44,782 nt of DNA from assembly GCA_038063995.1 (NCBI GenBank), contig JBBTUA010000006.1, forward strand, positions 1 to 44,782, given 5' to 3'. This document shows positions 4,076 to 7,832 of the stretch, one piece after another; within the stretch, counting starts at the first letter, position 1, and each line of letters begins with the position of its first letter. The stretch is from Patescibacteria group bacterium (lineage in GTDB: Bacteria > Patescibacteriota > Minisyncoccia > 2-02-FULL-40-12). The notes below the pieces were generated by a model, which made no database searches, was not told the origin of the DNA, and saw nothing but the letters and a program-made list of their open reading frames with translations. The position numbers were made by a program, and so were the translations under genes.

Positions 4076-4699
4076 ATGAGGATTAATCGAGTAATCCGAA
4101 CTCTCGTTACTTCTGATTTTTTGTTGATCTCTGGTTTTGCCGTTTTCGGTCCGGTTTTTGCGGTTTTCATCACCCAGAAAATTGAAGGAGGAACTCTGGC
4201 GATCATCGGCTTCACCGCCGCCATATTTCAGATTTCCAAATCGGCTCTGCAAATTCCAATTGCCAATTATCTTGATAAAAACCACGGTGAAAAAGATGAT
4301 TTTTATTCTTTGATAATAGGTTCGTTTTTAATTGCGTTCGTTCCATTTCTTTATCTTTTTGCCTCTAGGCCTTCCCATCTTTATATAATTAACGCTATTT
4401 ACGGCATCGGTGCGGCGTTTGCCATTCCGCCCTGGAACGCAATTTTCACCCGCCACATCGATAAAATGCAGGAAAGCACTGATTGGGCCGTTGAATCTGT
4501 TTCGATCGGCATCGGCGCGGCTTCTGCAGCGGCAGTCGGCGGAATCATTGCCGATAAATTTGGTTTCCAAGCCGTCTTTTTTATCGCCGGGATCATAGCA
4601 ATACTCGGTGCGATAAGCCTGACCAGAATTTATTCGAGTCTGATGGAAGAAGTTCCCCGCGGCCAGGTTTTGCCGGAGCCAGGCAGAAAGCATAATTAA
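4076..4699 (+). CDS. Half-size (about 6 TM) MFS transporter
   Basis: 207 aa, hydrophobic helices, MFS-like GGIIADKFG and YLDKNHG motifs. Confidence 0.75.
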   Translation: MRINRVIRTLVTSDFLLISGFAVFGPVFAVFITQKIEGGTLAIIGFTAAIFQISKSALQIPIANYLDKNHGEKDDFYSLIIGSFLIAFVPFLYLFASRPSHLYIINAIYGIGAAFAIPPWNAIFTRHIDKMQESTDWAVESVSIGIGAASAAAVGGIIADKFGFQAVFFIAGIIAILGAISLTRIYSSLMEEVPRGQVLPEPGRKHN

Positions 4700-4703
4700 T
4701 GAA

Positions 4704-4927
4704 CCCCGTTAGAAGCCGCCCTAACGGGTTAAACGAATGAAGCATCAAATATATAATAACCATCATTCTGCGCATAAAACTAACAATGTAGACTGCGCAG
4801 TCCCGTTAGAGGCCGCGAGTGCCCGCCCCGTACGAGATAGAGTATCGCTGCGAGCCCTCGCGATCTCGTTCGGGGCCCGCAGCGTGTCTCTGCTTCTAAC
4901 GGGACGAAGCAGCGACTTCTAACGGGA
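4704..4927. mobile_element. Nested palindromic insertion: outer CCCCGTTAGAAG...CTTCTAACGGGA, inner 4801-4904, innermost 4826-4875
   Basis: TGAA direct repeats at 4700-4703 and 4928-4931. The inner copy matches the murG insert. The innermost 50-bp CCCCGTA...TTCGGGG hairpin is flanked by CCCG direct repeats. Confidence 0.85.
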
Positions 4928-6642
4928 TGAATCCCGAAATCTCGAAAATTTTTCAGGAAATGGCCGTATTGCTGGATATGAAGGGAGTGGCTTTCAAACC
5001 TCGGGCCTATGAAAAAGCGGCTCTTATAATTGAAAACTTGAATGAAGATGTCGGTGAGATCTATAAACAAGGCGGCCTAGATGCTTTGCTTGAGATTCAA
5101 GGCATCGGCCAGGGAATGGCGGAGAGGATCGAGGAATATATTAAAACCGGTCATATTTTGGATTACGAAAAATTAAAGAAACAGATACCGGTTGATGTAA
5201 GCGGATTGACTTTGATCGAAGGCTTGGGGCCGAAGAATATTTACAAGCTTTACAAAAAACTCGGGATTAAAAGCGTTAAGGATCTTGAAAAAGCGGCAAA
5301 GACAGGGAATCTGCGGGGCCTTGCCGGATTTGGCGAAAAATCAGAACAAAAAATCCTGAAAGGGATAGAATTTTTAAAAGTCGGACAGGGCCGTTTTCTT
5401 TTAGGCAATGTTTTGCCTTATATAAAAATAGTCATAGACCGTCTTAAAAAACTGCCTTATGTGGAGCAAGCAGTGCCGGCCGGTTCGATAAGACGAATGC
5501 AGGAAACAATCGGCGACTTGGATATTTTGGCGATTTCCAAAAAACCCGAAGAAACGATTGAATATTTTGTTTCAATGCCGGAGGTAAGCCATATCTACGG
5601 AAAAGGCCCGACTAAAGCCAATGTGCGGCTGAAAAACGGAATGGAGGCTGATTTAAGAGTTTTGGAGCCGAAGTCTTTCGGCGCCGCTTTGCAGTATTTT
5701 ACCGGAGACAAGTATCATAATATTTCTTTGCGGGAAATTGCCGTAAAAAGGGGCTATAAGTTAAGCGAGTACGGACTTTTCAAAGGGGAAAAGAGAATAG
5801 CCGGCGAAACAGAAGAAGAAATTTATGAGAAACTTGGCCTGGAATGGATTTCGCCGGAATTAAGGGCTAATTCAGGAGAAATTGATGCGGCTCGGCTCAA
5901 AAAGCTGCCCGATTTAATAAGGTACGGCTCTTTGAAGGGCGATTTGCAGGTTCAGACGGATTGGACCGACGGACAGCATTCCATAAAGGAAATGGCTGAA
6001 GCAGCTAAAAAATACGGATTAGAGTATATTGTGATAACAGACCACACCAAATCTTTGGCAATGACCGGAGGGCTTGATGAAAAGAAGCTGTTGAAACAGA
6101 TGGCCGCGATTGATGAAATCAATCGCGAGTTAAAAAGTTCAAAGTTCAAAGTTTTGAAAGGTGCAGAAGTCAATATTTTAAAAGATGGCAATTTAGATAT
6201 AAAAGATGAAGTCTTGGCTAAACTTGATGTGGTTGGCGCGGCGGTTCATTCAAACTTCAATCTTTCGGAAGAAGAACAGACGGAAAGGATAAAAGCCGCT
6301 ATGGAAAATCCGAACGTGGATATAATTTTCCATCCAACCGGAAGAATAATCCATAAAAGGGAGCCTTATAAAATTTCTATTGACGAGCTCATAAAAACAG
6401 CCAAAAAAACAGGAACGGTTTTGGAAATTGACGCTTATCCGAATCGGCTTGATTTAAAAGATGATTACATAAAAAAGGCGGTGGAGGCGGGAGTTTTGCT
6501 TTCCATTGATTCAGATGGCCATAGCATTTCCCATTTTCAGCATCTTGAGTTAGGAATCGCCCAGGCCCGCCGCGGCTGGGCCGGGAAGAAATCAGTTATC
6601 AATACCCGAAGCTGGGAAGATATGCTTAAATTATTAAAATGA
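4927..6642 (+). CDS. polX: DNA polymerase X family with C-terminal PHP domain
   Basis: HhH repeats, AGSIRR, GDLDIL, YFTG motifs; PHP motifs ITDH and IDSDGH. Confidence 0.93.
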   Translation: MNPEISKIFQEMAVLLDMKGVAFKPRAYEKAALIIENLNEDVGEIYKQGGLDALLEIQGIGQGMAERIEEYIKTGHILDYEKLKKQIPVDVSGLTLIEGLGPKNIYKLYKKLGIKSVKDLEKAAKTGNLRGLAGFGEKSEQKILKGIEFLKVGQGRFLLGNVLPYIKIVIDRLKKLPYVEQAVPAGSIRRMQETIGDLDILAISKKPEETIEYFVSMPEVSHIYGKGPTKANVRLKNGMEADLRVLEPKSFGAALQYFTGDKYHNISLREIAVKRGYKLSEYGLFKGEKRIAGETEEEIYEKLGLEWISPELRANSGEIDAARLKKLPDLIRYGSLKGDLQVQTDWTDGQHSIKEMAEAAKKYGLEYIVITDHTKSLAMTGGLDEKKLLKQMAAIDEINRELKSSKFKVLKGAEVNILKDGNLDIKDEVLAKLDVVGAAVHSNFNLSEEEQTERIKAAMENPNVDIIFHPTGRIIHKREPYKISIDELIKTAKKTGTVLEIDAYPNRLDLKDDYIKKAVEAGVLLSIDSDGHSISHFQHLELGIAQARRGWAGKKSVINTRSWEDMLKLLK

Positions 6643-7832
6643 GATCGTATAGAATAATACTAGCTGGCGGCGGAACTGGCGGCCATATCTTTCCGCTAGT
6701 CGCAGTTGCCAGAGAACTTAAGAAAAAGGCCGATGAAAAAGGCTTGAATTTGAAGCTTTTGGCTGTGGCTGAAGACAATATCTGGAGAAATGAATTTGAG
6801 AAGGAAGGCATAAACTTCAAAAGGATTTTTGCTTTGAAATTGCGCAAAGTAGAAGGAGGCCGGATTAATTTCTTAGCCTTTTTTGTTCTTCCTTTTACTT
6901 TGATTCAGTCTCTTTGGCTTCTTTTTTTATTTATGCCTGATCTCGTTTTTTCAAAGGGCGGTTTTGCCTCTGTTTTTCCTTCTTTGGCCGCCTGGTCGTA
7001 TTTTATTCCCGTATTTATCCACGAGTCGGATTCAATACCCGGTAAAGCAAACATTTTGCTTTCGAAATTCTCCAGAAAAGTTTTTATTTCTTTTGAAAAT
7101 GCAGCCGGATATTTTCCGGCTCCAAAAACAATTTTAAGCGGCAATCCAGTAAGAAAAGAAATATTTGGCGGCGACAGATCGCAGGCTCTGAACCGCTTTG
7201 GTTTCGGTCCTGATAAAAAAACCATTTTGTTTTTGGCCGGAAGCCAGGGTGCGGCATTTATAAATAATTTGGTAATCGATAGTTTGGTTCAGTTAGTAAA
7301 GGAATTTCACCCCGTTAGAGGCCGCGAGGGCCCGCAGCGTGCCTCTGCCTCTAACGGGGTTCAGATTATTCATCAGGCCGGAATAAATAACTTTGAACAA
7401 ATGAAAAAAGAACTTGAGCAGTTAAAACGGGAAGGGGAATCAAGCTATGCGGCTGATATTGAAAAGAATTATCGGCTTTTTGGCTTTTTAAGCGAAGAAG
7501 AATTAAAAGACGCTTTTGCCGCAAGCGATCTTATTGTAAGCCGCTCCGGTTCTAATATTTTTGAGATCGCCGCGTTGGGTAAGCCTGCAATCGTTATTCC
7601 TTATCCTTATTCTGCCGGAGAGCATCAAAGGCAAAATGCTATTGAATTTGCGAAGTTTGGAGCAGTTGTTCTTGAAGAACAAAACCTTAAAACCCATATT
7701 TTAATTGATCAGATAAAAAATCTTTTAAAGCCGGAAAACTATTCGGCTGTAAGCCAGCAGATAAAAAGCTTTGCGAGAGTTGAAGGCGGAGGAATAATCG
7801 CCGCCGAAATATTTGAATATTTAAATATATAA
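6639..7832 (+). CDS. murG: MurG glycosyltransferase with an 18-aa palindrome-derived insert
   Basis: GGGTGGHIFP, KGGF, HESD, GNPVR, GSQGA, HQRQNA. Confidence 0.93.
   Translation: MRSYRIILAGGGTGGHIFPLVAVARELKKKADEKGLNLKLLAVAEDNIWRNEFEKEGINFKRIFALKLRKVEGGRINFLAFFVLPFTLIQSLWLLFLFMPDLVFSKGGFASVFPSLAAWSYFIPVFIHESDSIPGKANILLSKFSRKVFISFENAAGYFPAPKTILSGNPVRKEIFGGDRSQALNRFGFGPDKKTILFLAGSQGAAFINNLVIDSLVQLVKEFHPVRGREGPQRASASNGVQIIHQAGINNFEQMKKELEQLKREGESSYAADIEKNYRLFGFLSEEELKDAFAASDLIVSRSGSNIFEIAALGKPAIVIPYPYSAGEHQRQNAIEFAKFGAVVLEEQNLKTHILIDQIKNLLKPENYSAVSQQIKSFARVEGGGIIAAEIFEYLNI
7310..7359. mobile_element. 50-bp in-frame palindromic insertion with 4-bp TTCA duplication
   Basis: CCCCGTTAGAGGC...GCCTCTAACGGGG flanked by TTCA at 7306-7309 and 7360-7363. 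Removing 54 bp restores EFQIIHQ. Confidence 0.9.

Follow-up and report, generated by a model that had tools for sequence, protein, structure and literature searches.

Members of one family of short palindromic elements have landed in essential genes and on start codons of a very small genome, leaving the genes unbroken. Two such sites were found in the window, by which we mean the whole stretch of 44,782 nucleotides analyzed here (contig JBBTUA010000006.1 of the Patescibacteria group bacterium assembly GCA_038063995.1). One site lies within murG and the other on the start codon of polX. Both are very probably non-autonomous cut-and-paste elements (MITEs) of a single superfamily that persist where they are harmless. 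The original prediction of a non-autonomous mobile element tolerated in essential genes and at start codons is supported by termini, target duplications, empty sites and frame bias.

The murG site has the following features:

6639-7832, plus strand: murG, 397 amino acids, intact (Pfam Glyco_transf_28 and Glyco_tran_28_C; matched in 41 of 41 genomes)
7306-7309: TTCA, left copy of the target duplication in murG (sequence)
7310-7359, plus strand: 50-bp palindromic element of type A, in frame as (H)PVRGREGPQRASASNG(V) (sequence, fold and contig depth)
7360-7363: TTCA, right copy of the target duplication in murG (sequence)

A 50-bp palindrome between TTCA direct repeats had been predicted here, and both its coordinates and its sequence were confirmed. 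The insert amounts to 54 bp, or 18 codons, with the peptide HPVRGREGPQRASASNGV. When MurG was aligned with 18 relatives (44-67% identical), the 18 insert columns were empty in every one of them and all read ..F|QIIHQ... The 18 residues are therefore an addition to MurG and not a loop conserved among orthologues, and leaving them out restores the QIIHQ junction as had been claimed. The peptides predicted over the insert are ...EFHPVR..., ASASNGVQIIHQ... and ASASNGVQIIHQAGINNFEQMK. An AlphaFold model of MurG with a mean pLDDT of 87.8 shows the insert as coil, preceded and followed by a helix and a strand; its block means are 59 and 49. The element itself folds with -33.9 kcal/mol (z -5.2). Its depth in metagenome contigs was 660 compared to about 15 alongside, with loose ends at 7309/7310 and 7358-7361. 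Logan contigs were interrupted within the repeat at 7332-7338. Unique murG sequence was found to continue into the element in contigs from each of two studies, and no joint across an empty murG site was seen in the DNA contigs of four runs from two studies.

The features of the polX site are:

4076-4699, plus strand: MFS-type transporter gene (open reading frame; Pfam MFS_1, E 2e-21), TAA stop at 4697-4699; relatives 80-85% identical end alike
4699-4740, plus strand: predicted small frame 1, peptide MNPVRSRPNGLNE, from sequence; its TGA stop overlaps the next ATG
4700-4703: TGAA, left copy of the target duplication (sequence; empty site TAATGAAT in relative G007)
4704-4927, plus strand: composite 224-bp element reaching from the MFS stop to the polX start, termini CCCCGTTAGAAG and CTTCTAACGGGA; a long "type C" backbone with nested copies
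4705-4728: 24-nt mini-hairpin, the left terminus followed immediately by its own inverted copy; kept in all type C copies read
4737-4922, plus strand: predicted small frame 2, with its TAA in the right terminus, 4 nt upstream of the polX ATG
4801-4904, plus strand: nested copy of the 50-bp type, 104 bp, enlarged by the innermost insert; flanks GCAG and CGAA, no target duplication
4826-4875: innermost 50-bp palindrome, of a sister class, termini CCCCGTACGAGAT and ATCTCGTTCGGGG (nhmmer E 2.8e-5 and sequence)
4927-6642, plus strand: polX, family X DNA polymerase (open reading frame; Pfam DNA_pol_B_thumb, HHH_8 and PHP); relatives begin MN(P/E/Q)EI
4928-4931: TGAA, right copy of the target duplication (sequence)

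The polX start codon (4927-4929) consists of the final A of the element and the TG of the duplicated TGAA, which confirms from the sequence that an ATG is rebuilt at this position. Excision had been expected to give an MFS stop overlapping the polX ATG, and exactly such a site, in which stop and start overlap, is present in G007 (..CATCATTAATGAATGAAG..); the junction is uninterrupted in genome G001 as well. The 4704-4927 segment had also been taken as one copy of the murG element. It does share the murG termini and is flanked by TGAA, but it is not a single unit. It is a three-level nest in which a backbone of about 120 bp holds the 104-bp copy, and this in turn the 50-bp copy. The innermost palindrome is flanked by a CCCG duplication (4822-4825 and 4876-4879) and is missing from the copies in genome G004, where the nest at 4801-4904 occurs twice without it. 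The type C backbone was also found at other start codons. Small frame 1 would start at the old ATG, made of the last A of the TAA stop and the following TG, and would be read into the element. Small frame 2 lies in an open frame (4725-4919), and most other copies read likewise have an open frame of about 25 codons up to this TAA. Short-sided contig joints at 4719-4912 resemble other copies of the long element.

All members carry the termini YCCCGTTAGARG and CYTCTAACGGGR and a 4-bp target duplication. The motif CCCGTTAG occurs seven times in the window, all within the two sites, whereas 100 shuffled sequences averaged 0.60 and had at most 2, and the paired terminus pattern occurs once against none expected. 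The host genome was found to have 11 copies with the family termini, two of them mutually identical, and four of the sister class. Many more copies with identical termini were found when the relatives were scanned. Among 86 terminus pairs a perfect 4-bp repeat was present at offset 1 in 36, whereas offsets 0, 2, and 3 gave 0, 0, and 1, so that direct repeats far exceed the shifted controls. In a pooled census of 210 unique copies, which are not independent insertions and for which only the nearest termini were paired, 107 had a perfect duplication and 103 did not. The duplication fitted TNNA in 91 of the 107, compared to a background of 8.3%, and palindromic TNNA targets were nearly missing (1 of 91). 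The base adjoining the core was complementary between the two ends in 105 of the 107 and is therefore part of the element. The TTCA/TGAA target of the original prediction thus holds for the direct repeats at the two sites but is not exclusive, the two words being merely two common forms of TNNA. The elements are 50-224 bp long and have no long internal open reading frame. They resemble MITEs in being short without a transposase gene, in their shared terminal inverted repeats, in a target duplication of fixed length and in having empty sites; an autonomous element with identical ends was not found.

Tabulation of core lengths revealed a strong frame bias: core lengths divisible by three were found in 46 of 48 in-gene copies but in only 90 of 162 elsewhere (Fisher p 3e-8). 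The in-gene copies read PVR..SNG in 40 cases and PLE..LTG in six, are present in both orientations and occur once per gene. Nine of the copies in the host genome lie inside genes, all within intact open frames, and three lie on start codons. For eight checked host genes of these nine in-gene copies the insert was missing in relatives. Besides MurG these were the aldolase and an aminoacyl-tRNA synthetase (5 of 5 relatives each, the latter alignment re-read by eye), SecA (4 of 5), and two Mur ligases, a Wzy/TPR protein and one unnamed protein (5 of 5 each). Empty sites are thus available for MurG, the polX start and seven further host genes, which have no common function other than housekeeping. 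Outside genes, the junction ATG starts an open reading frame of at least 80 codons in 41 of 162 copies, compared to 0-4 for 15 other offsets. The long type was on a start codon in all three copies in the host genome and in all eight metagenome stretches found. Landing on start codons is therefore a general habit of the family and not one lucky event.

We suggest that the superfamily, with its terminal inverted repeats YCCCGTTAGARG...CYTCTAACGGGR, is moved by an enzyme supplied in trans, probably of the DDE type, which cuts TNNA sites with a 4-bp stagger, so that each insertion would be flanked by a 4-bp duplication. Copies would last only where harmless, and two properties of the sequence would make such places common in a nearly all-coding genome. 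First, the common subfamilies of 50 bp, 65-77 bp and similar lengths would, together with the 4-bp duplication, add a multiple of three. Because the element is palindromic, a stop-free P-V-R...S-N-G is read in either orientation, and an in-phase insertion would therefore add a short hydrophilic protein loop. Second, an element ending in A in front of a duplicated TGNN target would rebuild an ATG at its right edge, and landing on a start codon (ATGAA is typical here) would keep a usable start. The inserts are presumably translated, and the gene behind a start-codon copy is presumably expressed.

The element family reaches far past the host genome, across phyla as judged by record titles. Within the taxonomic family the paired pattern is present in 5 of 8 genomes, and within the order in 48 of 105. 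A reversed-pattern control matched a single genome. Beyond the order, spread was judged by record titles. For the element family these name many candidate-phyla groups and also other phyla, and a 48-nt core with 0-2 changes recurs in records titled as other candidate-phyla groups. Viral contigs contributed two stretches only. Among the papers listed in a literature search, none combined MITEs with candidate-phyla bacteria, although supplements may list some such elements; terminus sequence words matched only unrelated primers, and the main text of two MITE overviews contained neither Patescibacteria nor "candidate."

No mobilizing enzyme was found. Seven transposase families were tested, including HUH and DDE genes that might co-occur with the element, and all were absent from the host genome. 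Within the 105 genomes of the order, the IS1380-type DDE_Tnp_1_4 was found in one, which lacks the element, DDE_5 in one, DDE_Tnp_1_2 in one under the cut-off, and DDE_Tnp_1_3 in four (three over the cut-off), the ends of the latter elements being unrelated. DDE_Tnp_1 was absent from the five high-copy genomes and the eight genomes of the family, and rve was present in one of each. A piggyBac-type profile gave zero matches everywhere, controls included, and so carries no weight. No autonomous element with the same ends was found in 119 stretches of at most 8 kb or in 8 metagenome stretches. Likewise, 26 solitary termini had no adjoining transposase-like open reading frame as judged by eye, and when metagenomes were scanned for the left end of the long element, eight stretches came up, every one a short element. 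A search for paired termini with matching flanks at a spacing of 250-6000 bp gave a single clean case, locus L190 (2.9 kb), which was taken as chance because the large open reading frame that it encloses is not a transposase and has peptidase-like motifs (read by eye). IS982-like elements were rejected as a source, since their ends (GCTGTGAATTACGAAACTCCCTTTT) are unrelated to the family termini. An IS1380 copy in locus L270 begins CCCGTA, and its ends do not form a clean inverted repeat of this sequence.

A broader joint reading, which we regard as possible although rather doubtful, is that of a cross-phylum superfamily of structured palindromes that are invisible to translation, frame-neutral both ways and start-rebuilding. 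The long form might relay ribosomes from the upstream to the downstream gene via its two small frames. The superfamily would be transferred horizontally between ultra-small bacteria of groundwater, perhaps also archaea, that carry no known transposase, implying a mobilizer of an unrecognized kind or external delivery by phage, plasmid or DNA uptake.

Conservation of the fold bears on two further explanations. For type B a four-helix fold was found in which 96.7% of cells were paired and 11 pairs had changed at both positions, a level reached in 0 of 500 shuffles; the 12-bp outer helix was paired in 100% of cells (39 type B copies). The structure tested was our own, since the RNAalifold consensus lacked one hairpin and displaced the outer helix. 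Covariation in hairpins is not needed by a plain DDE-mobilized element and points to some selection on the folded single strand. The hairpin could thus be retained for a service to the host, such as mRNA stability, translation pacing, protein binding or a mobile 5' leader or promoter, mobility being a mere means of spread. Near-identical cores across distant lineages fit this idea, as does the position of the long type, always just upstream of a start codon and carrying two relay-like small frames and a perfect TATAAT, whose upstream hexamer matches at only 3 of 6 positions (read by eye). We nevertheless consider it unlikely. Relatives manage without the insert at every tested site (4 of 5 for SecA), in-gene copies are present in both orientations and their hosts share no function beyond housekeeping. 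A consensus promoter scan of 4500-5100 found no promoter, and an Rfam scan of 4500-7500 with E up to 1 found no match.

The same covarying fold would be expected if the element moved as a single strand and was recognized by an HUH tyrosine (Y1) transposase, in the manner of REP/REPIN-RAYT or of IS200/IS605 relics. Y1_Tnp genes were present in all five high-copy genomes and in 53 of the 105 genomes of the order. Their link to the element is however not clear: 28 genomes had both, 20 the element only (host genome included), 25 Y1 only and 32 neither. None of the six Y1 gene neighborhoods read contained a terminus of the family. Moreover, the 4-bp flanking repeats vary among near-identical copies, which marks a staggered cut and does not fit a guide-defined, duplication-free target. 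Such movement is accordingly quite improbable. Removal of the insert from the message or its bypass by the ribosome, intron-like, leaving proteins without the extra peptide, is very improbable. Phage T4 gene 60 has a bypassed gap of 50 nt and yeast mitochondria have bypassed elements, and the highly stable hairpin enclosed by short direct repeats is reminiscent of both. For neither process would the insert have to be divisible by three or free of stops, but both properties were found in 46 of 48 in-gene copies, 40 of which share one frame. Finally, that the element is immobile, being an old conserved protein loop or an assembly artefact as the Logan contig breaks might suggest, is contradicted by its absence from all 18 MurG relatives, by contigs of two studies passing from unique murG sequence into it, and by the recurrence of this design in numerous stretches belonging to many records with different titles, and can practically be dismissed.

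Genomes that are reduced and nearly free of spacer DNA are usually regarded as unfavorable to transposable elements. The MITE-like family described here overcomes the scarcity of spacer by sequence design, length and palindromic coding serving inside genes, and the last base and the duplication restoring starts. The hosts that tolerate it include MurG, MurD-like and other Mur ligases, SecA, an aminoacyl-tRNA synthetase and an aldolase. If the inserts are translated, they would steadily supply the essential enzymes of candidate-phyla bacteria with new surface loops, and would account for some unexplained insertions in alignments of these proteins. Near-identical copies in distant lineages and the lack of a co-resident transposase raise a concrete question, namely by what means DNA is moved within these cells and from one to another. 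On the practical side, assemblies break at the repeat, and gene prediction may go wrong at start codons.

Several known systems resemble these elements in part. Integron attC sites carry an inverse core RYYYAAC (5') and a core GTTRRRY (3') on the folded strand, lie between cassettes and lack a duplication; here the boxes are reversed (GTTAGA 5', TCTAAC 3') and copies lie in genes with duplications. Members of the IS1380 family have ends that begin with CC and a 4-5 bp duplication. The present elements likewise begin with CC and have a 4-bp duplication, and three of five element-carrying genomes outside the candidate phyla encode IS1380-type transposases. However, no IS1380 copy read ends in CCCGTTAG, no IS1380 transposase gene was found between family termini and the transposase is lacking in 104 of the 105 genomes of the order. 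IS200/IS605 elements have a guide-defined target and no duplication, and palindromes derived from them lack terminal inverted repeats and duplications and insert 3' of a fixed tetra- or pentanucleotide. This differs from the 12-bp inverted termini found here and from duplications that vary in near-identical copies. REPs lie outside genes, are marked by a GTAG or CGTC tag and lack a target duplication, and the RAYT gene is REP-flanked. Of the present elements, 48 of 210 copies lie in genes, there is no such tag, 4-bp duplications occur and none of the six Y1 neighborhoods read contains a terminus. Shared with REP/REPIN (PMC3733652) are short GC-rich high-copy palindromes, a conserved head sequence and genomes encoding Y1.

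With PARCELs the elements share dyad-symmetric coding DNA, similar peptides from either strand, a patchy distribution and a presumed horizontal spread. PARCELs repeat a 25-residue amphipathic motif in tandem, in surface proteins of unknown function, whereas the elements are single, with one copy per gene, have termini and duplications and lie in enzymes of known function. ERIC/RU, QMITE1 of Coxiella and the Anabaena MITEs have terminal inverted repeats, target duplications, the lack of a transposase gene and occasional in-frame fusions to host open reading frames in common with them (PMC10969869, PMC5896051, PMC2759123). Intragenic copies are exceptional in those families, and about 90% of MITEs were intergenic in a survey of 183,232 genomes (PMC11602168). 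The host genome, in contrast, has nine in-frame copies within genes and three on start codons.

The closest likeness is to the Rickettsia palindromic elements (Ogata et al., 2000), which the review PMC10969869 describes as palindromic, non-autonomous, multi-copy and about 150 bp long, in frame in housekeeping genes, with a recurring peptide per family and no transposase known. Shared features are in-frame insertion in unrelated housekeeping genes, a reduced genome, a recurring peptide (PVR..SNG in 40 of 48) and the lack of a transposase. Compared to the size of about 150 bp given there, the present elements are 50-77 bp, with 12-bp terminal inverted repeats and a TNNA duplication, and they differ further in reading the same frame in both orientations and rebuilding start codons. 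The analogy drawn in the original prediction is thus apt for the way of working and not for family membership, since the host belongs to another kind of organism and the likeness is one of description. The element family works like the Rickettsia palindromic elements but is far more widely spread, occurring in many phyla by record titles compared to a single genus.

The palindromes in murG and before polX were both found to be insertions, and they carry the same termini.

Window 7306-7363, murG site: TTCA, a 50-bp imperfect palindrome (CCCCGTTAGAGGC...GCCTCTAACGGGG) and TTCA, as read from the sequence
Window 4700-4931, polX site: TGAA, 224 bp with the same termini as the murG copy, and TGAA, as read from the sequence

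The murG copy lies in an open reading frame of 397 codons, the product of which matches both glycosyltransferase-28 domains of MurG. All 41 of the 41 related genomes have a MurG match. The original prediction of a 50-bp palindrome between TTCA repeats, adding 54 bp or 18 amino acids, was confirmed; the encoded peptide would be HPVRGREGPQRASASNGV. The alternative, a loop conserved among orthologues, is contradicted by all 18 aligned MurG relatives (44-67% identical), in which the 18 insert columns are empty and F is followed directly by QIIHQ, the reading predicted for murG without the insert. In an AlphaFold model (mean pLDDT 87.8) the insert (residues 224-241) is modelled as coil, its block means being 59 and 49, with helix 205-221 before it and strand 242-246 after it. 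In metagenome contigs from two studies, depth was 254-660 over 7264-7377 compared to about 4-20 alongside in three of four runs. Loose contig ends clustered at 7309/7310 and 7358-7361, which independently marks the edges of the murG element.

The 224-bp copy occupies 4704-4927 between TGAA repeats, as predicted; an MFS-type gene ends with its stop codon on the left, and polX lies on the right. The polX ATG (4927-4929) consists of the last A of the element and the TG of the duplicated TGAA, so that the predicted rebuilding of the start codon holds. The octamer CCCGTTAG occurs seven times in the window against a shuffle mean of 0.6, each time within the murG or polX site. An empty polX site was sought in four relatives whose MFS gene is 80-85% identical. 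The junction in relative G007 is empty (..CATCATTAATGAATGAAG..) and its TAA stop overlaps the ATG, the arrangement that had been predicted for excision; removal of 4704-4931 from the window gives TAATGAATCCC. Relative G001 reads TAA-GAA-ATG at this junction, and the two further relatives have unrelated spacers. The innermost part of the polX element is a copy of a sister class (4826-4875) between CCCG repeats, which makes the element a three-level nest. Two copies in genome G004 have the second level (4801-4904) as well and lack the third; the two-level composite therefore itself propagates as a unit.

To describe the family we pooled 60 fetched regions (20 genomes of the order), listed stretches of up to 8 kb from named genome records, and the genome of the window (G000). 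Copies were searched as nearest pairs of CCCGTTAG and CTAACGGG separated by 8-110 nt, giving at least 210 unique copies from 177 sources. Four bases form a perfect direct repeat in 107 of the 210. The single base between this repeat and the core is complementary across both ends (C..G or T..A) in 105 of these 107, and is therefore part of the element. In a smaller set of 86 pairs, a perfect 4-bp repeat was found in 36 at the true offset, while offsets 0, 2, and 3 gave 0, 0, and 1. TTCA and TGAA, the predicted target, are among the common repeats (TTCA 17, TCAA 14, TAAA 12, TTGA 11, TTTA 11, TGAA 11), but the general form is TNNA (91 of 107, background 8.3%). The palindromic tetramers TTAA, TATA, TGCA, and TCGA account for one of the 91 TNNA duplications, although one in four possible TNNA sequences is palindromic. 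Flanks vary among near-identical type A copies, and the repeat thus arises at insertion and is not the element's own.

The G000 assembly (395 kb, 12 contigs, about 85% complete, G+C 41%) holds three types with the family termini, and a profile search added four sister-class copies with termini CCCCGTACGAAG/CTTCGTTCGGGG and the interior of type A.

Type A: 50 bp, six copies
Type B: 74 bp, two copies
Type C: about 112-125 bp without nests, three copies
Sister class: contig 10, 730-771
Sister class: contig 3, 57382-57422
Sister class: contig 2, 5588-5627
Sister class: window 4826-4875

Sister-class duplications are TCAA in two copies and CCCG in the nested one. All eight type A and B copies lie within long open frames (312-1201 codons) and are read in one element frame, P-V-R...S-N-G, whatever their orientation. 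Together with the contig 10 sister-class copy, which is in frame within a long open reading frame and has an equivalent reading, nine copies are inside genes. By Pfam, eight of the hosts are MurG, class II fructose-bisphosphate aldolase, two Mur ligases, SecA, a class I aminoacyl-tRNA synthetase, a Wzy_C/TPR protein, and a protein without Pfam match; the ninth is the host on contig 10.

Eight hosts were compared with relatives. The insert is missing in five of five same-family relatives for the aldolase, both Mur ligases, the Wzy/TPR protein, and the unnamed protein. The same was found for the synthetase, where MAFFT misplaced the gap and the alignment was re-read by eye; the site lies between IS(V/I) and H(L/F)H, beside a separate 9-residue difference. 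For SecA it is missing in four of five; in the fifth, G006, another palindrome occupies the site. Many copies, variable 4-bp duplications and empty sites in relatives bear out the predicted non-autonomous mobile element.

The G006 SecA palindrome (locus L226) has 20-bp arms, CCCCCACACTCACTTTGGAC, at the exact site of the 74-bp G000 copy (contig 12: 14124-14197), and its flanks are TTCA and CAAG as in that copy. A genome of the G006 genus has the SecA site without any insert. In the synthetase with a 74-bp copy (G000 contig 7, L220) a histidine-phosphatase domain (His_Phos_1), at about codons 501-655 of the frame, separates the two catalytic-domain halves.

A copy was counted as inside a gene when a frame continued open for 50 codons or more to each side, a class boundary set by us; this holds for 48 of the 210 pooled copies. 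The predicted length bias was found: the core is a multiple of three in 46 of these 48 compared to 90 of the 162 others (Fisher p 3e-8), although copies are not independent events and the 162 also contain hairpins from inside long elements and copies close to where a fetched stretch ends. Forty of the 48 read PVR..SNG, six PLE..LTG and two are mixed. The third element frame has TAG and TAA within the termini. Judged from the sequence, the in-gene inserts are predicted peptide additions.

All three type C copies in G000 adjoin an ATG that opens a long open reading frame (polX, a 110-residue protein, and a protein with a signal-peptide-like start). Of the 162 copies outside genes, 41 show a frame of at least 80 codons starting exactly at the junction ATG (last base of the element plus two repeat bases), while 15 neighbouring offsets gave 0-4 copies each. 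Upstream of the element, none of the 41 frames extends open beyond 30 codons. When metagenomes were scanned with the type C left end, eight stretches were found, every copy adjoining an ATG; by translations read by eye, the genes that begin there include a triose-phosphate isomerase, ribosomal protein L4, and a Mur ligase. When the total length is a multiple of three, a left-hand ATG can read through the element as an N-terminal extension of the gene; when it is not, the rebuilt ATG must be the start used. The type C left-hand ATG opens a 13-codon frame (window 4699-4740), the TGA of which overlaps the next ATG. The second frame (window 4737-4922) runs to a TAA that lies in the right terminus, 4 nt ahead of the gene ATG; it has about 25 codons ending in ...RSSDF (window and loci L224, L261, L264, and L266). 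It is open to the same TAA in type C copies read through, with an early stop in at least one (L265). These small frames could be a relay for translational coupling, or a transposase-frame remnant.

Folding energies are -33.9 kcal/mol (z -5.2) for the murG copy and -47.2 (z -5.5) for one type B copy. When a fold of four helices (outer 12-bp helix, 5-bp helix, and two hairpins) was laid over 39 distinct type B copies, 96.7% of cells were paired, compared to 31-47% in slid controls. Eleven pairs changed on both sides, a number reached in 0 of 500 shuffles. The interior is therefore under some constraint on the folded strand, or on palindromy as such. Rfam gave no match in the window region holding the type A and type C copies. 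The 48-nt murG core is identical in a second G000 copy and in L194, and has 1-2 base changes in several other records. L194, L116, L115, and L182, with 0-2 changes, are titled as other candidate-phyla groups, and one stretch is 62% G+C; neutral DNA should be saturated at the distance of these records.

Within the family, five of eight genomes have the paired pattern, and within the order 48 of 105; one genome can carry as many as 33 copies. The reversed pattern, used as control, matched in one genome. Named records held at least 119 stretches. Among the matches listed, many copies have clean duplications, and titles include Nomura-, Yanofsky-, Kerfeld-, Falkow-, Azam-, Giovannoni-, Doudna-, and Terrybacteria and other candidate phyla, besides Omnitrophota, Planctomycetota, Elusimicrobiota, Nitrospirota, Riflebacteria, Pseudomonadota, and one Nanoarchaeota. 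The apparent cross-phylum range is based on record titles and binning errors are possible, yet some stretches have a G+C of 0.62. Only two stretches were found in 2.9 million viral contigs.

The termini, together with a 4-bp duplication that varies in sequence, suggest a DDE-type cut-and-paste enzyme that would act in trans. IS1380 elements have CC ends and a 4-5 bp duplication (ISfinder tables). On paper this is the best-fitting family by description, but it found no support in our analysis. The IS982-like and IS1380-like elements seen in a few genomes differ from the family in their ends. Within the order, genome G079 (1.4 Mb, 330 contigs) has no element copy, and its transposases of the IS1380 and IS701 types are on very short contigs; it may be a mixed bin. 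The search for a co-occurring HUH or DDE gene came out negative: G000 had no matches to DDE_Tnp_1, rve, DDE_Tnp_1_4, DDE_5, DDE_Tnp_1_3, DDE_Tnp_1_2, or Y1_Tnp. The piggyBac-type model matched nowhere, so its G000 result carries no information. Y1_Tnp, present in 53 of 105 genomes of the order, shows no clear link with the element: 28 genomes have both, 20 the element only, 25 Y1 only, and 32 neither. The six Y1 neighbourhoods that we read had no flanking family termini. In these 53 genomes the proteins that match Y1_Tnp in part have 200-290 residues, often number several per genome, and are packed between ordinary genes.

We found no description of the family in the main texts of the literature searched, and the main texts of a review (PMC10969869) and of a MITE survey of 183,232 genomes (PMC11602168) do not mention Patescibacteria or candidate phyla. 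New features are the small size, the clean termini with a TNNA duplication, one frame in both orientations, start-codon rebuilding, the covarying fold, the cross-phylum reach, and the lack of a known mobiliser. The closest model is the Rickettsia palindromic elements, which according to the review are palindromic, lie in frame in housekeeping genes of reduced genomes, and encode a recurring peptide (PMC10969869). The original observation is confirmed and its interpretation supported. We see here a MITE family that resembles the Rickettsia elements in how it works, with copies in frame within housekeeping genes and a recurring predicted peptide.
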